A DNA stretch of 64,000 bases from Alphaproteobacteria bacterium (lineage in GTDB: Bacteria; Pseudomonadota; Alphaproteobacteria; JAJTHO01; CANGXP01), in the NCBI GenBank assembly GCA_947457935.1, contig CANGXP010000003.1, forward strand, positions 29,256-93,255, read 5' to 3'. A model generated the notes under the pieces. The model was not told where the DNA came from and made no database searches. It saw only the letters and a list, made by a program, of their open reading frames with translations. Position 1 is the first letter of the stretch; the number at the start of each line of letters is the position of its first letter. Position numbers and translations under genes: made by a program. Positions 4,408 to 59,428 of this stretch are shown piece by piece.

Positions 4408-4434
4408 GGTTTGTCGTATGTGATTGCTCTGTGT

Positions 4435-4505
4435 GTCATCCCCTCGAAAGAGGGAATCCAGAATTACTTAGGAAGACTGGATTCCCGCCTGCGCGGGAAT
4501 GACAC
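4435..4505. repeat. MITE-like dispersed repeat, copy A (TIR GTCATCCCC...GGGAATGAC; internal ATTCCC-N-GGGAAT palindromes)
   Basis: Intergenic between rpe and rsmB. Stacked hairpins GGGAATCCAG..CTGGATTCCC and ATTCCCGCctgcGCGGGAAT. Related copies at 39458-39528 and 42701-42793. Confidence 0.7.
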
Positions 4506-4538
4506 GTCGTTAAGTGTTGTTGATATGGTTAAAAGTGC

Positions 4539-38317: not shown

Positions 38318-39439
38318 CTATTGATAAAAAGAGCTTTTCTTATACTCTTGTATCGCAAAGCGCACCAATACCCCTGTCACCGCCGCAAACGGCACGGCAA
38401 TCAATACGCCCAAAAACCCAAACAGACTGCCCCCTGCAAACAGCGCAAAAATCATCCATACAGGGTGTAGGTTAATGCGACTTCCCACTAATTTCGGGCT
38501 AAGGATATTGCCTTCAATGAATTGCCCCGCGCCATAGATTGCGGCAATAATCGCAACATTTTGCCACTCAGCCATGCCGAATTGCGAGAAGGCAACGCCA
38601 ATACTCACCAGCCCCCCTACAATCGTGCCGACATAGGGAATAAAGGAAATAAACCCACTTGCCAGACCAATGACAAAGCCAAAATCTAGCCCTGCAACAC
38701 TCAGTGTAATGGCGTAAAAAATTCCTAAGCTCAATGAAACCAGCACTTGCCCGCGAATAAACCCTGCAATCGCGGCATCCATCAGTCCGAGCTGTTGCTT
38801 GATAGTCTCGTAATAATGGCGTGGCCACCAACCATCCAGCACTTTGGTAAGCGTTGGCCAATCCCGTAAGAGATAAAACGTAATCACAGGGGTTAGAATT
38901 AACAACGACAATACGCTAAACGCTTTTAAACTGCCGCTTATGAGCGTTTGCACGAATTTCCCTGCAAAGTTTACCACCGTACCTGCTTGCTCTTTCGCAA
39001 TGGCGGGGAGGTCGTTCAGATTCCCAAAGCTGCCTTTTGCAAGGTGCGCTTGGAATTCTTTGTAAAGCGGTTCAAAACGTGTCTGTAGCGTGTTGATATA
39101 TTCAGGCAATTTCAGGAAAAGCCCTGTAAGCTGTGTTTGCAGCAACGGTAGAATCATGAATGCCGCCCCCACAAAGCCGAGTAGTGCGATGAGGAGAACA
39201 ACTGTTGTGCCCAGCCAACGCGGAAGTTTGCGCTTCTCAAGGCTATTAACAAGGGGATTGAGCAAATACGCCAGCAACATTGCCGCAACAAAAGGCACAA
39301 GCACCTCTTGTAAATAAGACAGCACAACAAGTGTACCCACAAAAACAATTAACCAAAAAATCGAACGACGAGAACTTGGAAGCACGGAAGAATTCCTTAA
39401 TTTAAGGGATTTATTTTTATTAGAACTTACATGAAGCAT
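38318..39439 (-). CDS. AI-2E family transporter (PerM-type permease)
   Basis: 373 aa with about 8 TM helices; AI-2E/UPF0118 pattern. Confidence 0.8.
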   Translation of the reverse strand: MLHVSSNKNKSLKLRNSSVLPSSRRSIFWLIVFVGTLVVLSYLQEVLVPFVAAMLLAYLLNPLVNSLEKRKLPRWLGTTVVLLIALLGFVGAAFMILPLLQTQLTGLFLKLPEYINTLQTRFEPLYKEFQAHLAKGSFGNLNDLPAIAKEQAGTVVNFAGKFVQTLISGSLKAFSVLSLLILTPVITFYLLRDWPTLTKVLDGWWPRHYYETIKQQLGLMDAAIAGFIRGQVLVSLSLGIFYAITLSVAGLDFGFVIGLASGFISFIPYVGTIVGGLVSIGVAFSQFGMAEWQNVAIIAAIYGAGQFIEGNILSPKLVGSRINLHPVWMIFALFAGGSLFGFLGVLIAVPFAAVTGVLVRFAIQEYKKSSFYQ

Positions 39440-39457
39440 CTAAGATTTGTCGCGTAT

Positions 39458-39528
39458 GTCATTCCCGTGCAGACGGGAATCCACTCTTATTTAAAAAATG
39501 TGGATTCCCTTTTTCAAGGGAATGACAC
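39458..39528. repeat. MITE-like dispersed repeat, copy B (GTCATTCCC...GGGAATGAC)
   Basis: 71 bp. Hairpins ATTCCCGTgcagACGGGAAT, GGGAATCCAC..GTGGATTCCC and ATTCCCtttttcaaGGGAAT. Intergenic between perM and the DUF2066 gene. Confidence 0.7.
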
Positions 39529-39582
39529 GCGGAGCAATCGTTTCGTATAAGTCCTTTGTGTAGTATATTCTGGTAAAAATTC

Positions 39583-42606: not shown

Positions 42607-42700
42607 ACACTGTCTTTTAAGGTAGGGCACATTACTGCTATCCCCCCTTCACAACGCCCTAATAATCCGTTAAACAGGCTTTATTACTTACACGAAAGTG

Positions 42701-42793
42701 TCATTCCCGCCCCCGCCTCCGCGAGGGTAAACTTTGGCGGGAATCCACAATTTTTAAGAAAAGACTGGATTCCCCTTTGCAGGGGAATGACAT
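42701..42793. repeat. MITE-like dispersed repeat, copy C (GTCATTCCC...GGGAATGACA)
   Basis: 93 bp. ATTCCCGCC..GGCGGGAAT, GGGAATCCACA..TGGATTCCC and ATTCCCCTttgcAGGGGAAT. Intergenic between the lipoprotein gene and leuS. Confidence 0.7.
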
Positions 42794-42831: not shown

Positions 42832-45480
42832 ATGACCGACCGTTACAATCCCAAAATCGCTGAACCACACTGGCAAGACAAATGGGCGGCACAAAACGTT
42901 TTTGTTGCGCCTAAGGAAAATCCTGCAAAGCCTTATTATGTCTTGGAAATGTTCCCGTATCCGTCGGGGAAAATCCATATGGGGCACGTGCGGAATTATA
43001 CGTTGGGCGATGTGGTGGCGCGGTTCAGGAAGGCACAAGGCTATGACGTGCTGCACCCGATGGGGTGGGATGCGTTCGGGCTGCCCGCCGAGAACGCCGC
43101 CATTCAAAGTAAGGTGCATCCTGCCGAGTGGACATATAAAAATATCAAAGACATGCGCGAACAGCTTAAACCCATGGGTTTAAGTTATGATTGGAGTCGG
43201 GAGATTGCCACCTGTTCGCCTGATTACTACCGCTTTGAGCAAGAATTTTTCCTCGAATTTCTGAAAAAAGGCTTGGCGTATCGTAAAGAATCTTGGGTGA
43301 ATTGGGATCCTGTCGAGCATACAGTTCTCGCCAACGAGCAGGTGATTGACGGCAAGGGTTGGCGTTCTGGCGCGGTGGTAGAGAAAAAACAACTCGCGCA
43401 ATGGTTTTTGAAAATCACTGATTATGCGGAGGAACTCTTACAGGGTTTAGAAACTCTAGCGCACTGGCCTGAAAAAGTGCGCCTCATGCAAGAACGCTGG
43501 ATTGGCAAATCACATGGCGCGGTGGTTGAGTTTAAACTGGTAAGAAAAGAAGACTGGACACCAGCTTTCGCAGGTGATTCGCACCACAGTCATTCGCCAC
43601 AACTCGGACGAATTGCCAGCGAAAGCTGGCATCCAGAAGAGGGTGCACTCCAGACCATCCCCGTGTTCACCACTCGCCCAGACACCTTATTCGGCGCGGC
43701 ATTCGTGGCAATTTCTCCGTCACATCCCTTAGCGGTTGACTGCGCGAAAACAGACCTAAAACTGGCGGATTTCCTCAAAGAATGCAACGCGCAGGGCACC
43801 TCAGAAGCCGCCATCGAACAACAAGAGAAAAAGGGCTATAAAACCCCGCTCACCGTTAAGCATCCATTTAATGATGCAGCAGAACTTCCTGTTTATGTAG
43901 CAAATTTTGTGCTCATGGAATACGGCACAGGCGCGGTATTTGGCTGCCCTGCCCACGACCAGCGCGACAATGATTTTGCCCATAAATACGCCCTGCCGAT
44001 TAAAACCGTGGTGCTGCCAACAGGGGAGAATCCCGCCACCTTTACCATTACAACAGAGGCCTACACAGGCGACGGCACGCTGTATAATTCCGATTTTCTG
44101 AACGGGCTTTCAGTTGCAGATGCTAAGAAAACAGCCGCTCAAAAACTAGCCGCCAACAAGCAAGGCGAGGCAAAAACCACCTATCGTCTGCGTGATTGGC
44201 TGATTTCCCGCCAACGCTATTGGGGTTGCCCGATTCCCGTGATTTACTGCGATAGTTGCGGGATTGTGCCTGTGCCAAAAGCACACCTGCCCGTCACCTT
44301 GCCCGAAGATATTGAACTCGGGCAGGCAGGCAACCCGCTTGACCGCCACCCAACGTGGAAACACACAACCTGCCCCCAGTGTAATAAGCCTGCAACCCGC
44401 GAAACAGATACGTTTGACACGTTTTTTGAGTCCTCGTGGTACTTTGCACGGTTTACAGGCTTGACCGCTGATAAGCCGTTTAACAAGGAACTTGCCGAGG
44501 CTTGGCTGCCCGTTGACCAATATATTGGCGGGGTAGAGCACGCGGTGCTGCACTTGCTCTATGCGCGATTTTTCACCAAAGCCCTCCGAGATGTAGGGTA
44601 TTGGCGGCTTTCAGAGCCTTTTAAAGGCTTGATGACCCAAGGCATGATTTGCCACCAAACCTTTAAAAACAGCGCGGGACAGTGGCTTTTTCCTGAACAA
44701 GTGGCGGACGGCGTGGAGATTGCCACAGGAAACCCTGTGACCATCGGGGCATCCGAAAAAATGAGCAAATCGCTGAAAAACGTGGTCGATCCTGACTATA
44801 TCATCAGCACCTACGGGGCAGATACGGCGCGGCTGTTCATGCTCTCCGATTGCCCGCCCGAACGCGATATGGACTGGACAGATAGCGGCGTTGAGGGCGC
44901 GTGGCGGTATACCAATCGCTTGTGGAAGCTGGTGCATGGCGCCATCCCTGCCTTGCCGCCTGTGGGCACAAAGGTAACGGATACAACACAGTATACCGAT
45001 GTGTTGCGCCTGATTCACAGCACAATTCATCATGTAACCCAAGATATAAGCCAGTTTCGGATGAATCGCGGTGTGGCCAGAATCCGTGAACTCAGTAATG
45101 GGCTAGAAGCCTTCAATGCCACAGACACAGCGGGTTTGACCGTTTTTCGCTTTGGTTTAGAAACACTGTGCCAACTCATCGCGCCGATGATGCCGCATCT
45201 TGCAGAAGAGCTGTGGAAATTGTTAGGGCATGAAACCCTTGTGATTCAAACGCCTTGGCCTGTTGCCGATGAAACATTGATGGCAAAAGACGTGGTGACG
45301 ATTGCGGTGCAAATTAACGGCAAACTCCGCGCTACGCTTGACGTTGCGCCCGATTTTCCGCAGAGTGAATTGGAACAACAAGCACTTGCCGCACCCACGG
45401 TTATCAAGGCGTTGGAAGGCAAAACAGTGCGAAAAATTATTGTGGTGCCGAATAAGATTGTTAATGTGGTGGCGGCCTAG
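42832..45480 (+). CDS. leuS: leucine--tRNA ligase
   Basis: 882 aa. HMGH class I signature (SGKIHMGHVRNY) and KMSKS. Full-length LeuRS. Confidence 0.97.
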   Translation: MTDRYNPKIAEPHWQDKWAAQNVFVAPKENPAKPYYVLEMFPYPSGKIHMGHVRNYTLGDVVARFRKAQGYDVLHPMGWDAFGLPAENAAIQSKVHPAEWTYKNIKDMREQLKPMGLSYDWSREIATCSPDYYRFEQEFFLEFLKKGLAYRKESWVNWDPVEHTVLANEQVIDGKGWRSGAVVEKKQLAQWFLKITDYAEELLQGLETLAHWPEKVRLMQERWIGKSHGAVVEFKLVRKEDWTPAFAGDSHHSHSPQLGRIASESWHPEEGALQTIPVFTTRPDTLFGAAFVAISPSHPLAVDCAKTDLKLADFLKECNAQGTSEAAIEQQEKKGYKTPLTVKHPFNDAAELPVYVANFVLMEYGTGAVFGCPAHDQRDNDFAHKYALPIKTVVLPTGENPATFTITTEAYTGDGTLYNSDFLNGLSVADAKKTAAQKLAANKQGEAKTTYRLRDWLISRQRYWGCPIPVIYCDSCGIVPVPKAHLPVTLPEDIELGQAGNPLDRHPTWKHTTCPQCNKPATRETDTFDTFFESSWYFARFTGLTADKPFNKELAEAWLPVDQYIGGVEHAVLHLLYARFFTKALRDVGYWRLSEPFKGLMTQGMICHQTFKNSAGQWLFPEQVADGVEIATGNPVTIGASEKMSKSLKNVVDPDYIISTYGADTARLFMLSDCPPERDMDWTDSGVEGAWRYTNRLWKLVHGAIPALPPVGTKVTDTTQYTDVLRLIHSTIHHVTQDISQFRMNRGVARIRELSNGLEAFNATDTAGLTVFRFGLETLCQLIAPMMPHLAEELWKLLGHETLVIQTPWPVADETLMAKDVVTIAVQINGKLRATLDVAPDFPQSELEQQALAAPTVIKALEGKTVRKIIVVPNKIVNVVAA

Positions 45481-45507: not shown

Positions 45508-46023
45508 ATGAATCTAAAGACTTTTTTTTCAACAGCCTGCCTTGTTCTCACCCTCACTGCGTGCGGCTTTCATCCGCTGTATAGCAAAAATGGGGCAACA
45601 ATCGCCACCACGGAACCCGCTGTGGCGGAGAACTTACGGCAAATCAAGGTACTGTCCATAGCCGATAGGGCAGGGCAGAAATTGCAATGGCAGTTGAAGA
45701 ACAGCCTTGCACAAGGCTATGAGCCAGACCGCCCGCTCTATCAATTAGCCGTAGGCTTAGACGAAAGCATTGGCTATCTGGGGATTCAGCAGGATGCCTC
45801 GTCCTCATATGGAAAACTGTCTATTACCGCAACATTCACCCTAACAGACACCAAAACAGGCAAAGTAGTGTTTGAAGACAAGCAAAAAAGCACCAGTGGC
45901 TACACGATTGTGGACTCTGAATATGCCTCTCTCAAAGCCGAGCAAGACGCACGGGACAAAGTGTTACGCCAATTAAGTGAGCAGATTACGCGGCGGTTAG
46001 CGTTGTTTTTTAATAAGAAATAG
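45508..46023 (+). CDS. lptE: LPS-assembly lipoprotein LptE
   Basis: Lipobox LTAC. 171 aa. Sits directly downstream of leuS as in the conserved leuS-lptE-holA arrangement. Confidence 0.6.
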   Translation: MNLKTFFSTACLVLTLTACGFHPLYSKNGATIATTEPAVAENLRQIKVLSIADRAGQKLQWQLKNSLAQGYEPDRPLYQLAVGLDESIGYLGIQQDASSSYGKLSITATFTLTDTKTGKVVFEDKQKSTSGYTIVDSEYASLKAEQDARDKVLRQLSEQITRRLALFFNKK

Positions 46024-46094
46024 CTTGCAATATAACCTGAGGTGTATACAACCCTGAATTATATATAGCATGTTGTATTTTTCAGGATATTTTT

Positions 46095-46904
46095 ATGGAA
46101 TATAGCGGTATTTATCGAGAGGTACAAATTTGTTCCTCTGGAACAGAGAAATCTCAAGAAGACCTAAAATTTCAAGAAGCATTAAAAATTGCAAGCCGCA
46201 TTTGGTGCGAGGCAACGGGCAATGATTGCCTGCCCAAGACTCATAAACATGCTGCTCCCTTATACCATCATATCCCCGATTATCCCACTATTCTTGACCA
46301 AGCGATTCAAGCCGCAGAAAAGCAAGACGCTTTTGTAATACTAGTTTATCAACCAATAGGGACGCATACGAGTGCAGAAAAATTGCCTTTATGGGCATTT
46401 GACGAAGAAATAGCAAAACAGCGGCTTGTGCCTGTTTCGTGTGCCTTACTGTGCGAAGGATTGCCGCCTCACAAAAACTATTTAGTGGGGGCTTTGCCCG
46501 TAGCAGAATGTAATCTATGGTATGGGGGACGCTTTGCAACGCTCTCGCAATATGGTCAACAAGGCAACTCTAAATTGTTGTGGAATGCAGCAATGCGAGA
46601 AGTTTTTGAGACGAGAGGTTCAGATCAACTCATTTTTTCAAGACGTGTGGGAGAGAACGATAGTAGCGGGAATGTTAACCCTCATGGCTATAAAGATGGT
46701 TTAGTGGCGTGGTATACACGCGAATTTGGCAGCCCAACCGTCATTCCTGTTCCCGAGCAAACCAATGCCGAAACAGGAGAACTGGAGAAAAGAGGGCTAC
46801 TAGAAGCTGTTTACACCTATTCGGCTCAAGCCTATTTTGAAAAACTACAAGAACGTGTTGCTGCAGCAAAAAATATCCGCAGTATGGTGGTGATAGCGCG
46901 TTAA
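46095..46904 (+). CDS. hypothetical protein (no recognisable family)
   Basis: 269-aa ORF interposed between lptE and holA, where those genes are normally adjacent. No motifs recognised. Confidence 0.45.
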   Translation: MEYSGIYREVQICSSGTEKSQEDLKFQEALKIASRIWCEATGNDCLPKTHKHAAPLYHHIPDYPTILDQAIQAAEKQDAFVILVYQPIGTHTSAEKLPLWAFDEEIAKQRLVPVSCALLCEGLPPHKNYLVGALPVAECNLWYGGRFATLSQYGQQGNSKLLWNAAMREVFETRGSDQLIFSRRVGENDSSGNVNPHGYKDGLVAWYTREFGSPTVIPVPEQTNAETGELEKRGLLEAVYTYSAQAYFEKLQERVAAAKNIRSMVVIAR

Positions 46905-47006
46905 CTATTTTCCCGCTAAATATCTGAAATTCATCAAAATTCGTTTTTGCCGATTTTCAGAAATTTGGCTCTATCCTGCCGTGGAAACAATGTTTCACGT
47001 GAAACA

Positions 47007-47074
47007 TATTTACAGCTTTATGTAAATTTAGTACACCAATCCTCATGAAAATTAACGATTCCGCCGCGGGTCGC
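47007..47074 (+). repeat. direct repeat copy 1 (duplicated holA promoter/start segment)
   Basis: 47-bp perfect match (tgtaaatttagtacaccaatcctcatgaaaattaacgattccgccgc) plus imperfect flanks to 48398-48465. Contains the ATG and first 9 codons of holA. Confidence 0.85.
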
Positions 47075-47107
47075 TGTATTCAAGCTGTAAATTCTATCGT
47101 TTTATAA
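47045..47107 (+). pseudogene. 20-codon remnant of the holA 5' end (MKINDSAAG...), duplicated
   Basis: Identical to the first 9 codons of holA at 48436, then diverges to a stop after 20 codons. Confidence 0.6.
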
Positions 47108-47120
47108 CAAATGATGGCGT

Positions 47121-47184
47121 AGTATAGTTAAGTATAGTTAAGTATAGTTAAGTATAGCGTGTTATAGTATAGTTAGACTATACT
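47121..47184 (+). repeat. iteron-like tandem repeats (AGTATAGTTA x3 plus degenerate copies) ending in inverted repeat AGTATAGttagaCTATACT
   Basis: Directly visible in the sequence; lies 20-80 bp upstream of the ATPase gene start. Confidence 0.8.
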
Positions 47185-47204
47185 CGTATAAAAAGGATAT
47201 ACTT

Positions 47205-48377
47205 ATGGATCCCGTACGCAATCCCTTTGCTCCTGGTGCTGGCAATCCCCCGCCTGAATTGGCAGGGCGAGACTCTATCTTACACGCAGCAGACATTGCG
47301 TTGCAGCGTATTTTGCTGGGCAGACACAGTAAATCCCAAATTCTCTTGGGTTTACGCGGCGTTGGAAAGACAGTTCTTCTCAGAAAATTGGAAGCAATGG
47401 CGCAAGGGCATGGGTATCAGACCTCATTCATTGAGGCACCTGAGAATAAATCCCTTGTGGAACTCCTCTATCCCAAGATTCATCAAGTGCTTCGTAAGTT
47501 ATCGAGCATTGAAAATGCAAAAATGATGAGTCTTAATGCAATGAGAACACTGCGTTCTTTTGCAAAAACATTCAAAATCTCTATCGAAGATATTTCTATT
47601 TCGGTTGATCCTGAAATAGGGAGTGCTGATAGCGGCATATTAGAATATGATCTCAGCGAGCTTTTTATTCGTGTGGGAGAAACAGCAAAAGCAGCTGGCA
47701 AAGGCTGGTGTCTTTTTATTGATGAAGTACAATATCTTTCCAAAGAAGAGCTATCAGCCCTTATAGTTGGCATTCATCACAGTAATCAGAAAAGCCTTCC
47801 TATTATGTTTTTTGGCGCCGGTTTGCCACAAGTTGCGGCGTTATCGGGAGACGCTAAGTCGTATGCAGAGAGGCTTTTTGATTATCCGCCTGTTGGTGCG
47901 CTTGATGCTGCCGCCGCTGTTGCTGCAATTAAACAACCTATTTTAGAGGAAGAAGAGCGTATTACAGAGGAAGCACTCGTCAGCATCATCGAAAAAACCA
48001 AAGGATACCCCTTTTTCTTACAAGAATGGGGTTTCCAAGTTTGGAATATTGCTGATCAATCGCCCATTAGTCCGCAAGATGTTGAACAAGCCACGCCCAT
48101 TGCCTTAAACAGGCTAGACGATAGTTTTTTTCGTGTACGATTTGAGCGATTAACTCCCAAGGAACGTGACTATGTTTGCGCAATGGCGCGGCTGGGGAAA
48201 GGCCCTTATCGCTCCGCAGATGTTGCTGATATAATGGGAGAAAATATACAGAAACTAGGTTCTTGCCGTTCACAGATTATCAATAAAGGGATGATTTACA
48301 GCCCCTCACACGGAGACATCGCTTTCACTGTTCCGCTGTTTGAGGAGTATTTGATGCGTACGCATGGAATAAAGTAG
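47205..48377 (+). CDS. STAND/AAA+ superfamily ATPase with C-terminal winged-helix-like region (archaeal-ATPase/COG1672-like)
   Basis: N-terminal NPFAPGAGNPPPELAGRDS motif (NPFxPGxP...GR), Walker A GLRGVGKT, Walker B LFIDEVQ, and GYPFFLQ downstream. 390 aa. Confidence 0.7.
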   Translation: MDPVRNPFAPGAGNPPPELAGRDSILHAADIALQRILLGRHSKSQILLGLRGVGKTVLLRKLEAMAQGHGYQTSFIEAPENKSLVELLYPKIHQVLRKLSSIENAKMMSLNAMRTLRSFAKTFKISIEDISISVDPEIGSADSGILEYDLSELFIRVGETAKAAGKGWCLFIDEVQYLSKEELSALIVGIHHSNQKSLPIMFFGAGLPQVAALSGDAKSYAERLFDYPPVGALDAAAAVAAIKQPILEEEERITEEALVSIIEKTKGYPFFLQEWGFQVWNIADQSPISPQDVEQATPIALNRLDDSFFRVRFERLTPKERDYVCAMARLGKGPYRSADVADIMGENIQKLGSCRSQIINKGMIYSPSHGDIAFTVPLFEEYLMRTHGIK

Positions 48378-48397
48378 CTTGAGAAGACACTCTTTAA

Positions 48398-48465
48398 CAT
48401 TTACGCTTTTCTGTAAATTTAGTACACCAATCCTCATGAAAATTAACGATTCCGCCGCTGGTCGC
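48398..48465 (+). repeat. direct repeat copy 2 (native holA start region)
   Basis: Matches 47007-47074. Confidence 0.85.
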
Positions 48466-49443
48466 CATGCCCAAGCCCTGCCAAAAGAGGTGCACTCTGT
48501 GTTGGTGTTTGGCTATGATGAGGCACAAATTCGTAATCGGGTGCAGCAGCTCACGCAACAGGTGTGCGCGGATGTGAACGATGCGTTTGCGGTGGAGACA
48601 TTGACCCCTGCTACGCTGAAAGACAATGAGGCGGCGTTGGCAACAGCGGTGTTGTCGCCCTCGCTGATGGGCGGGAAAAGAGTGGTGCGGGTGTTGGACG
48701 CAACCGATAAGCTTACCGCCACGCTCAAGGATTTACTGCCAAAGTTACCCGATGCCGACTGTTTGCTGATACTTTCTGCGGGAGAGCTGCCGAAAAATTC
48801 CTCTTTAAGACTGCTCTATGAGAATCACGCAACGTATTTGGGCTGGATTTGCTATAAGGAGGAAGGGGCAGCGTTGCAACGGGTGCTGCAAGAAGCACTC
48901 CAAGCAAAAGGGTTGACCTTGCCTGTTCCCGCGCAACAATATCTGCTCAGCGCCATCGACAATGAGCGCGGATTGCTTGCAGCTGAGGTGGAAAAATTGT
49001 TGCTGTATGCCTATCCCAGAACCGCCTTAACCCTAGAGGATGTAATTGCTAGCGTTGCAAGTGTTATGCAGTCTAGCATTGATGCGTTTTGCTTTGCGGT
49101 GCTGGAGAAAAAACGGGGGGCGATTCAGGCAGAATATGACAAGGCGGTTTTTGAAGGGGTGAATGAGATTGTGCTGCTGCGTGCCTTGCAAAATTTTGTC
49201 GGGCGATTGTTGCAGGTGAAAGCCCTGCAGCAAGAGGGGAAAACGCTGGCAATAGCGATGAAAATCTTAAAGCCGCCTGTGTTTTTTAAAGTGGAACAAC
49301 GTTTTGGTAAGTTGGTGCAAGAGTGTTCAGAAGAGCGGCTGAATACGCTTCTAGGGCTGTTTTTAGAGCTAGAAGTGACCGCCAAACGGGGACATGGCAT
49401 TGGCGAATTATTGGTGCAGCGGGCGTTGTTGCGCGGCGCATAG
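48436..49443 (+). CDS. holA: DNA polymerase III delta subunit
   Basis: 336 aa from MKINDSAAG. VLVFGYDEAQ with delta-subunit helical domains. Last member of the conserved leuS-lptE-holA arrangement. Confidence 0.75.
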   Translation: MKINDSAAGRHAQALPKEVHSVLVFGYDEAQIRNRVQQLTQQVCADVNDAFAVETLTPATLKDNEAALATAVLSPSLMGGKRVVRVLDATDKLTATLKDLLPKLPDADCLLILSAGELPKNSSLRLLYENHATYLGWICYKEEGAALQRVLQEALQAKGLTLPVPAQQYLLSAIDNERGLLAAEVEKLLLYAYPRTALTLEDVIASVASVMQSSIDAFCFAVLEKKRGAIQAEYDKAVFEGVNEIVLLRALQNFVGRLLQVKALQQEGKTLAIAMKILKPPVFFKVEQRFGKLVQECSEERLNTLLGLFLELEVTAKRGHGIGELLVQRALLRGA

Positions 49444-49960: not shown

Positions 49961-50133
49961 CGGGCGCATGTATTTTTCATACTCAAGGAGTCCGAAACGC
50001 CGTTGGCAGTCCCGTATATTTAATTATGCAATTGTCAATAATTTCGCGCTAATTGCAAGAAGATGGGAAGCTTCCATCCTCTCCCATGTCATCGCAACAC
50101 AGAGTGTTACGAGACACGAGGAGGGTGAGAAGC

Positions 50134-51038: not shown

Positions 51039-51320
51039 CCAGACCCCGTCATGCGACGGGGTGACGGTTATACCACGGACGTCGCCCCGTGCTTGTCACG
51101 GGGTCTGGTTTTTAGATAAACGTGGTGCAGTATAGTGCCAGACCCCGTCATGAAGACGGGGTGACGATTGTATCAATGAAAGTCTATCCAGACCCCGCAC
51201 TTCCCCTCCTTTTAGTCGGGGTAGCGGAGTGACGTTCGGTGGTGATTGAAAGAATTACCAGACCCCGTGACAAGCACGGGGCGACGGACTTTGGTATCGT
51301 CCGTCACCCCATGACAAGCG
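51039..51320. repeat. cluster of 5-6 REP-like palindromic units (CCAGACCCCGT-N7-ACGGGGTGACGG), one pair in inverted BIME-like orientation
   Basis: Units at 51039-51067, 51081-51108 (inverted), 51138-51166, 51188-51226 (degenerate), 51258-51286, and a partial one at 51301-51320, at irregular spacing of 50-100 bp. Confidence 0.75.
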
Positions 51321-51341
51321 CAGAAAGAACTTTTATCATCC

Positions 51342-59151: not shown

Positions 59152-59239
59152 GCCCTCGTGGCGGAATCGGTAGACGCAACAGACTTAAAATCTGTCGGGA
59201 TTTATTCCCGTACCCGTTCAAGTCGGGTCGAGGGCACCA
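59152..59239 (+). tRNA. tRNA-Leu (anticodon TAA), type II with long variable arm, CCA encoded
   Basis: Acceptor stem GCCCTCG/CGAGGGC, anticodon stem ACAGA/TCTGT with loop CTTAAAA, long variable arm cgggatttattcccgt, and 3' ACCA. Confidence 0.85.
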
Positions 59240-59428
59240 TTCTTATAGTTGGTTGAAGAATTAACAGGACAGAGGCGAGAACAAGTTGAGGTCGACGCGG
59301 TGTACACTTTCGTACATTAGGAGGCCGAAACGAAGTTCGCAGTCCTGTCCAGTTAATTATGCAACTGACTATAAAATTATTACAAGACGTAGTGGCTTTC
59401 ACATAGAGTCTATTCTAGATTATCTGTC

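Follow-up and report, generated by a model that had tools for sequence, protein, structure and literature searches.

Which kind of element are the short inverted repeats that occupy three intergenic regions of a 64-kb stretch of alphaproteobacterial DNA, and by what means could they spread? The stretch (64,000 nt, in the following called the window) belongs to a metagenome contig of 104 kb (ENA ERZ27263728); window coordinates are used throughout, and elements located outside of it are given by locus label (e.g., L003). By their sequence, the window elements are head-to-head dimers of repetitive extragenic palindromes (REPs) of the family CGTC-1, which corresponds to dRS3 and NTS in Neisseria, to RPE-6 in Rickettsia and to Ssn-related motifs (SRM) elsewhere. 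The best explanation as a whole, CGTC-1 dimers with an Ssn-based mode of action, is considered rather probable. Since this family has already been described across many bacteria, the elements are an ordinary new instance of it and no new kind of element.

Architecture and family identity of the repeat dimers

Each element consists of two inverted units of about 28 nt and an A/T-rich spacer of 15-19 nt, with the TGTC tags pointing outward (head-to-head). Read from the tag, a unit has the layout TGTC / ATTCCCNN / 4-nt loop / NNGGGAAT / CCA(G/C) with an 8-bp stem. The TGTC tag is present in six of six intergenic window units and the CCA tail in all units. Five occurrences of the pattern ATTCCC-N4-30-GGGAAT were counted in the 64 kb, each of them inside the three elements (0.10 expected from shuffles), and GGGAATCCA is found exactly six times in the window, again exclusively in the three elements.

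The three copies named in the original prediction are real, with coordinates that were off by 1-2 nt (corrected in Table 1), and belong to a genuine repeat family with further copies, namely a fourth one shortly after the window end and a degenerate fifth one in leuS. On alignment, the shared termini are TGTCATTCCC / GGGAATGACA, so that the predicted terminal inverted repeat could be verified except for the left end of copy 1 (GTCATCCCC), which has one mismatch. Hairpins are present as well, but in place of a stack the sequence is better read as two inverted stem-loop units of 28 nt with an A/T-rich spacer of 15-16 nt. The conserved central hairpin also exists, but it results from the inner half-stems and CCA tails of both units pairing across the spacer.

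The two variable stem positions of the elements are always complementary (TC/GA, GC/GC, GT/AC, TT/AA, and CT/AG). In the unit alignment, 94% of the cells are paired in the stem and five of the eight pairs carry compensatory changes; the covariation score of the unit stems was reached by none of 500 shuffles. Folded as single-stranded DNA (ssDNA), the elements reach z-scores of -4.1 to -7.0 compared to shuffles and form three hairpins or one long hairpin. The 4-nt loops on the tag strand are GAAA, GCAG, GCAG, GAAA, and GCAA. These loop sequences follow the tag strand, and the element therefore carries a strand-specific signature. Expanded loops were detected in the left units of copy 3 (22 nt) and copy 4 (24 nt).

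All four intergenic copies represent the same heterodimer, in which the left loop is GCAG-type or expanded and the right loop is GAAR/GCAA. Furthermore, an extra tail, ACGCGGAGCAA(A)TCG..., is common to copies 1 (reversed), 2, and 4. From the recurring left/right pattern and the common tail it follows that the dimer, and not the single unit, was copied. The outer flanks of copy 2 are common to copy 4 and in part to copies 1 and 3; the left and right flank combine into an imperfect outer palindrome, ACTTAYRCGAAA ... TTTCGYRTAAGT. An unoccupied target of the ACTTAYRCGAAA type could not be found elsewhere in the window, where matches remained at chance level. The dimers are isolated and have a density of about one per 20 kb. 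As predicted, the window copies are strictly intergenic, and all four intergenic copies are located between co-directional genes, at distances of 34-92 nt from the upstream stop codon and of 17-39 nt from the downstream open reading frame (ORF).

CGTC-tagged REPs including the family CGTC-1 were defined by Di Nocera, De Gregorio and Rocco (2013, BMC Genomics 14:522; PMC3733652). A CGTC-1 unit has a CGTC tag (often TGTC, with CCTC as a further variant), an 8-bp stem opening with AT, a 4-nt loop and a CCA tail. The units mostly form head-to-head dimers with the tags outside and spacers of 20-100 nt, and they are extragenic, mostly between unidirectional or convergent ORFs. Heterodimers, occasional expanded loops, dimers nested in a larger palindrome, and in-frame intragenic copies were also reported, and the family was equated with dRS3 in Neisseria and RPE-6 in Rickettsia (PMC3733652). 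The window units share the tag, the 8-bp stem starting with AT, the 4-nt loop, the CCA tail, the head-to-head orientation and the location between unidirectional ORFs, and heterodimers, expanded loops, nesting in a larger palindrome and an in-frame intragenic copy are all present here too. They differ in their spacers, which at 15-19 nt lie at or just below the reported range, in stem positions 7-8, whose variability in a single genome is unusual (GC, GT, TC, TT, and CT), and in a lineage-specific tail of 21-28 nt on one side of the dimer.

A second line of identification comes from the Ssn system of Neisseria, described in a study from 2025 (Nat Commun; PMC11893778). There, NTS is described as a 28-nt oriented motif, CGTCATTCCCGCGMAVGCGGGAATCYRG, that accounts for about half of the dRS3 copies. 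SRM similar to NTS are found in diverse bacteria (among the alphaproteobacteria, in Rhizorhabdus and Wolbachia) and are clustered near the small GIY-YIG gene ssnA. Binding of the hairpin by the SsnA nuclease is restricted to ssDNA and to one strand, and the RNA form is not bound; the cut is made a few nucleotides 5′ of the hairpin. Cutting requires the GTC that precedes the palindrome, and binding requires the C that follows it (PMC11893778).

The unit at 4477-4504 (-) equals NTS with one mismatch and two other units with four mismatches. The published SRM pattern, HGTCWYN(0-2)YYVSBRHN(0-5)WNVSBRGN(0-2)RNCYNB (PMC11893778), fits three of the six window units, whereas 0.13 would be expected by chance. 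GTC before and C after the palindrome are kept in all six intergenic window units, and the C is invariant in the unit alignment even if the arms found in leuS are included. The resemblance to dRS3 noted in the original prediction could thus be confirmed. The ATTCCC-N8-GGGAAT core is present in four exact copies and one near-exact copy with the same GTC and CCAG flanks. In contrast to the isolated dimers found here, Neisseria has hundreds of dRS3 copies in large mosaic clusters (NIMEs), in which other repeats are interleaved.

The exact dRS3 spacing suggested a Neisseriaceae genome as a candidate source. This was ruled out by alphaproteobacterial homologues and by COQ9 and HIG1 domain proteins, which are encoded in the window along with a DUF3576 protein. 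The best named homologues belong to Azospirillum for DUF3576, to Rhodospirillales (Telmatospirillum, Magnetospirillum, and Thalassobaculum) for LeuS, and to Sphingomonadales (Polymorphobacter and Rhizorhabdus) and Dongiaceae for Rpe. As these named homologues share only 55-74% identity, the host is an uncultured alphaproteobacterium that has no close relative among sequenced genomes. A search of genome contigs with the DUF2066 protein returned no relative. The repeats had been called unexpected in an alphaproteobacterial background. The background is indeed alphaproteobacterial, but CGTC-1 hosts are predominantly Alphaproteobacteria and CGTC-type REPs predominate there (PMC3733652), so the surprise was misplaced.

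Table 1. Positions of the repeat copies and of further features in the window
Feature	Position	Strand	Description
Copy 1	4434-4504		Head-to-head dimer of CGTC-1 REP / NTS-type units; between rsmB stop (4539) and rpe start (4407), both genes on - strand
Copy 1, unit	4434-4461	+	TGTCATCCCCTCGAAAGAGGGAATCCAG
Copy 1, spacer	4462-4476
Copy 1, unit	4477-4504	-	TGTCATTCCCGCGCAGGCGGGAATCCAG
Copy 1, insertion block	4413-4508	-	96 nt; in window and P0242 lineage (L337); absent from L339, L338, and L344
Copy 2	39457-39527		Head-to-head dimer; between DUF2066 stop (39583) and perM start, both genes on - strand
Copy 2, unit	39457-39484	+	Loop GCAG
Copy 2, unit	39500-39527	-	Loop GAAA
Copy 2 with outer flanks	39423-39554	+	Left flank GAACTTACATGAAG..., right flank ACGCGGAGCAATCGTTTCGTATAAGTCC
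Copy 3	42699-42792		Head-to-head dimer; between DUF3576 stop (42606) and leuS ATG (42832), both genes on + strand
Copy 3, left unit	42699-42748	+	Expanded loop of 22 nt
Copy 3, spacer	42749-42764
Copy 3, right unit	42765-42792	-	TGTCATTCCCCTGCAAAGGGGAATCCAG
Copy 4	L003 12189-12288 (~window 65149-65248)		Same contig, ~1.1 kb beyond window end; head-to-head dimer between fpg and 186-aa ORF; expanded left loop; outer flanks as copy 2
leuS	42832-45480	+
In-frame insertion in leuS	43552-43650	+	99 nt = 33 aa, DWTPAFAGDSHHSHSPQLGRIASESWHPEEGAL
Arms of leuS insertion	43554-43581 and 43609-43636		Tags inward
78-nt direct repeat	47008-47085 and 48399-48476		87% identity
67-nt direct repeat	49975-50041 and 59308-59374		78% identity
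Second-family cluster	51039-51330		At least five units; intergenic, directly 3′ of 1043-aa RTX/HemolysinCabind-like ORF
tRNA-Leu(TAA)	59152-59239

Presence and absence of the copies in related lineages

Close relatives were reached via a protein database and contig look-ups with exact proteins. The gap between rsmB and rpe comprises 131 nt in the window and in L337, which are both filled, compared to 43 nt in a lineage with 97% identical Rpe and 8 nt in a lineage with 99% identical Rpe, which are both empty. In the loci with the 43-nt gap (L339, L338, and L344), the flanks align on both sides of the copy 1 insertion; L332 and L334 lack copy 1 as well, but there a larger part of the intergenic region is deleted. 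On the - strand, the inserted block reads GACG, dimer, and a tail of 21 nt, CACAGAGCAATCACATACGAC; it thus exceeds the inverted ends by 4 nt on one side and 21 nt on the other. The insertion is located directly after ACTT(A/T)AC. At its junctions, at most 2-3 nt (AC/GAC) are repeated, so that a clear target-site duplication could not be identified at copy 1, and none is common to the flanks of the four copies.

Copy 3 is missing from the region upstream of leuS in relatives whose LeuS is 96% or 90% identical, and the left flank aligns. A clean insertion model was rejected for this copy, since the differences from the empty sites extend beyond the dimer to 13 nt on its left and 39 nt on its right. 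The check for empty sites and target-site duplications proposed together with the prediction was therefore positive for the former, with empty sites for copies 1 and 3, and negative for the latter at the copy 1 junction.

A metagenome search at JGI with Rpe revealed only relatives with at most 72% identity. No repeat units could be found in 445 kb of these distant rpe loci; at this identity and lacking units, the loci are of no use for an empty-site alignment. In about 122 kb of the sister lineages, units are confined to the rsmB-rpe site of a single lineage. As units are sparse in the sister lineages and were not found in the distant loci, the family is patchy, and it seems to have expanded recently in the lineage of the window. 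The presence/absence polymorphism is consistent with a recent gain in blocks of about 96 nt without target duplication.

Furthermore, leuS itself contains an in-frame insertion just before the TTRPDT motif, where the CP1 editing domain is entered. Its arms are two diverged CGTC-1-like units with the tags pointing inward, and the right arm matches NTS at 21 of 28 positions. The insertion is present in the relative with 96% identical LeuS and absent from the 90% relative and from six other Alphaproteobacteria. The segment is a degenerate fifth copy of the repeat dimer. In-frame insertion into a coding gene is also known from RPE-6/RPE-4 in Rickettsia, whereas the leuS copy differs from the Rickettsia elements in that it is a 99-nt dimer of diverged units with inward tags, found in an alphaproteobacterium of free-living type. 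The peptide WTPAFAG in the insertion echoes WIPAFAGMT, which is encoded by the consensus repeat.

WIPAFAGMT was also detected in long spurious ORFs of loci from other genomes (L030, L048, L072, and L108). Such ORFs probably account for false "hypothetical proteins" in many annotations, and the recurrent repeat-encoded peptide W(I/T)PAFAG(M/D) can yield spurious ORFs or real protein insertions.

Several other rearrangements were observed around copies 2 and 3. The region upstream of leuS is a hot spot. At the DUF3576-leuS junction, for which relatives are represented by contig E2bpaWCj with P0004, by L329, and by L331, the relative with 96% identical LeuS has a different hairpin upstream of leuS, TTTACCAGCGGAAGCTGGTATCCAGAC. 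One relative carries a DNA methylase gene and an NgoPII-type restriction gene after DUF3576, and another one (L329) carries a DDE transposase (DDE_Tnp_1) upstream of leuS, on an insertion sequence (IS) free of repeat units. Compared to a 90%-level relative (L124 and L328; window 39440-39582 and 46023-48436), the segment DUF2066-purM-DUF3576-leuS-lptE is inverted. Its breakpoints are the perM-DUF2066 junction, which holds copy 2, and the lptE-holA junction, which in the window contains two extra ORFs, one of them for an AAA ATPase, as well as a duplicated holA 5′ end. The second copy of the 78-nt direct repeat spans the holA start codon, so that the first copy is this duplicated end; it borders an inserted segment of about 1.3 kb.

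Association with GIY-YIG genes and competing explanations

A collection of species-representative genomes (596 Gb) was searched with the inner-dimer pattern GGGAATCCA-N14-30-TGGATTCCC. At least 120 genome blocks from many phyla matched. The hosts comprise all classes of Pseudomonadota, "delta" lineages of the Desulfobacterota type, Planctomycetota, Nitrospirota, Chloroflexota, Acidobacteriota, Bacteroidota, Ignavibacteria, Patescibacteria, and others. For the bare 18-base core alone, about 147 chance matches would be expected in 596 Gb. Among the matches listed, both outer halves (GTCAYYCCC-N8 and N8-GGGRRTGAC) are present in 70 of 126 and one half in 29 more, while the chance of finding both outer flanks is about 2e-10 per hit. 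In the 197 units of the matches listed, the two variable stem positions are Watson-Crick paired at 97-98%, compared to 82-88% after shuffling. Their loops, counted on the tag strand only, are GAAA in 88, GAAG in 38, and GCAG in 28 cases, and the first tag base is C in 109 and T in 81 units.

In five of the fetched loci (L077, L107, L210, L250, and L302), the dimer abuts or flanks a small GIY-YIG gene. In Microvirga (L077), a GIY-YIG ORF (Pfam E 3.8e-15) ends directly before the dimer, and such an ORF likewise adjoins the repeat in a gammaproteobacterial metagenome-assembled genome (L107). In L210 the units are located just 3′ of the gene. L302 and L250 show the arrangement NTS(+)-gene-NTS(-), in which the stop codon of the L302 gene abuts the downstream unit. 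The window dimers have the same outer arrangement as NTS-gene-NTS, with the gene absent. They share with NTS/SRM the extragenic location, the conserved GTC and C, and units that bracket a GIY-YIG gene in other genomes.

The following mechanism is proposed. In ssDNA, each unit would fold into a hairpin with a 4-nt G-N-A/R-R loop and a (C/T)GTC tag. A small single-domain GIY-YIG nuclease (Ssn) would bind this hairpin by reading the stem and the following C, and would cut a few nucleotides 5′ of the tag; the cognate Ssn is predicted to bind and cut ssDNA carrying TGTCATTCCCGTGCAGACGGGAATCCAC. The gene-less dimers would be the non-autonomous counterpart of the inverted units that bracket ssnA elsewhere, and they would be copied by Ssn or by a process triggered by it. 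By analogy with Neisseria, Wolbachia and related enzymes, this is the most likely mechanism, and it presupposes that the organism encodes a cognate Ssn. A benefit for the host may lie in the trimming of incoming ssDNA in recombination or in hairpins at transcript 3′ ends between co-directional genes. Natural transformation is the role described in Neisseria.

A stronger version of this proposal states that the dimers are currently active non-autonomous elements. A GIY-YIG nuclease of the Ssn type would copy them via a single-stranded intermediate, in blocks of about 96 nt that comprise the dimer and a lineage-specific tail. Recent activity is suggested because relatives with 97-99% identical flanking proteins differ in filled and empty sites and because leuS, an essential gene, holds an in-frame copy. 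In this full form, the proposal is regarded as doubtful. The more general suggestion of a non-autonomous mobile element, one of several possibilities raised in the original prediction, is defensible in view of the empty sites in close relatives and of the units bracketing a GIY-YIG gene elsewhere.

Several results weigh against an Ssn-based working of the repeats. In the window and 10 kb on each side (about 85 kb of one metagenome contig), no GIY-YIG gene could be found by a motif scan, by tblastn with three SsnA-like proteins or by Pfam, so that, in contrast to the Ssn system, ssnA is not seen in the part of the contig covered. A transposase or integrase, the search for which had been suggested with the prediction, was not detected in the same 85 kb either (Pfam on unannotated ORFs and precomputed Pfam). 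The about 122 kb of the sister lineages likewise yielded no GIY-YIG gene. Three of the six window units fall outside the strict SRM pattern due to unusual stem bases or an expanded loop, and at copy 3 the comparison of the filled site with its empty homologues shows more than a clean insertion. Finally, the findings of the Ssn study are confined to the cleavage of ssDNA and an influence on transformation in Neisseria (PMC11893778), and transposition by Ssn is not known from any study. The inverted-dimer arrangement is not discussed in the text of the Ssn study consulted here.

The dimers could instead act mainly in RNA, as intercistronic or 3′-untranslated hairpins that block 3′-5′ exonucleases or attenuate read-through, with their spread being incidental. 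The position of all four intergenic copies between co-directional genes and near upstream stop codons fits such a role, as do the A/T-rich spacers, and the same positional bias was reported, and RNA roles suggested, by Di Nocera et al. (PMC3733652). The terminator module considered in the original prediction is supported at most for copy 2, where the (-) unit and the T-rich spacer are terminator-like on the transcribed strand, but this is one of the three window copies; the corresponding site of copy 3 is on the non-transcribed strand, and Rfam scans matched only a tRNA and no repeat. Moreover, the loop bias (GNAR) follows the tag strand and not the direction of transcription, a generic hairpin function does not explain a near-identical sequence across phyla, and SsnA does not bind the RNA form (PMC11893778). 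A mainly RNA-based function is therefore judged unlikely, while a role at the RNA level is possible and compatible with the main explanation at the DNA level.

Considerably less probable is a mobilization as REPINs by a RAYT (IS200/IS605-like), or a function as attachment sites for recombinases of the IS110 type or of filamentous phages, as for dRS3, which is reported in the introduction of PMC11893778 to be a phage recombinase target in Neisseria. The dimers do resemble the REPIN-RAYT systems of Pseudomonas and Enterobacteria, which are based on GTAG-tagged REPs: in both, an inverted doublet of a short hairpin is the copied unit, a target duplication is missing, and the doublet corresponds to the arrangement of a single-copy gene between flanking repeats, minus the gene. 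They differ in the tag, which is CGTC and not GTAG, and in the enzyme, since the gene bracketed by the units in other genomes encodes a GIY-YIG nuclease and not an HUH tyrosine transposase. An association of CGTC repeats with RAYT or another transposase was sought by Di Nocera et al. and not found (PMC3733652). Y1_Tnp had no match among the window ORFs scanned or in the precomputed Pfam lists, and no Y1 transposase, integrase or phage gene is located in the window or its flanks. The phage or integrase target site envisaged in the original prediction thus lacks a corresponding gene next to any copy. The single unit is frequent in IMG/VR contigs, but presence in viral contigs is uninformative for such a widespread repeat.

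Least probable is the predicted classification as miniature inverted-repeat transposable elements (MITEs), i.e., deletion derivatives of an IS with a DDE transposase that have terminal inverted repeats of 9-11 bp and move by cut-and-paste: small copies (71-94 bp), inverted and identical ends, multiple intergenic copies and insertion polymorphism are all in line with it, but the supposed terminal repeats are the tags of two inverted, self-folding units that also occur singly and with tags inward, the copy 1 block runs 4 and 21 nt past them with no target duplication beyond the ambiguous 2-3 nt, the same 28-mer is kept in many phyla unlike lineage-specific MITEs, and no IS with TGTCATTCCC ends is present in the window, the only IS in a relative (L329) being devoid of units. 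By analogy, the reading at the DNA level, in which the dimers would be Ssn targets and gene-less counterparts of NTS-ssnA-NTS, appears best supported.

A second CGTC-tagged family and implications

A cluster of a second CGTC-tagged family was detected 3′ of the RTX-like gene. Its units have the layout CGTC / (A/G)CCCCGT(C/G) / 4-5-nt loop / (G/C)ACGGGGT / CTGG, for example CGTCACCCCGTCTTCATGACGGGGTCTGG, with the right half (G/C)ACGGGGTCTGG, and the second stem pair is C-G instead of the usual T-A. No further unit of this family could be found elsewhere in the 85 kb, and a scan of viral contigs (IMG/VR) was negative. The cluster, the RTX-like gene and glycosyltransferase genes lie within a segment of about 9 kb that is bracketed by the 67-nt direct repeat, one copy of which is located just 3′ of tRNA-Leu(TAA). 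This segment may be a genomic island with attachment-site remnants. Toxin-antitoxin pairs are encoded at about 6.7-7.4 kb (Gp49/HI1420-type) and just outside the window (YoeB/Phd, L003 16521-17159); relatives have a ParE-type pair instead at a nearby site.

The empty sites for copies 1 and 3, the in-frame dimer in leuS and the second cluster of CGTC type are new here. For annotation, the repeats should be labeled as CGTC-1 REP / NTS-type Ssn-related motif and neither as a new MITE nor as a neisserial oddity. CGTC repeats have long been described without a dedicated transposase, and their spread by Ssn is put forward as a hypothesis. The filled and empty sites in close relatives, the junction without target duplication and the in-frame leuS copy all bear on how such repeats spread. 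If the hypothesis is true, the lineage would offer the first natural population for reconstructing the Ssn-dependent mobility of CGTC repeats, a question that has stood since 2013.

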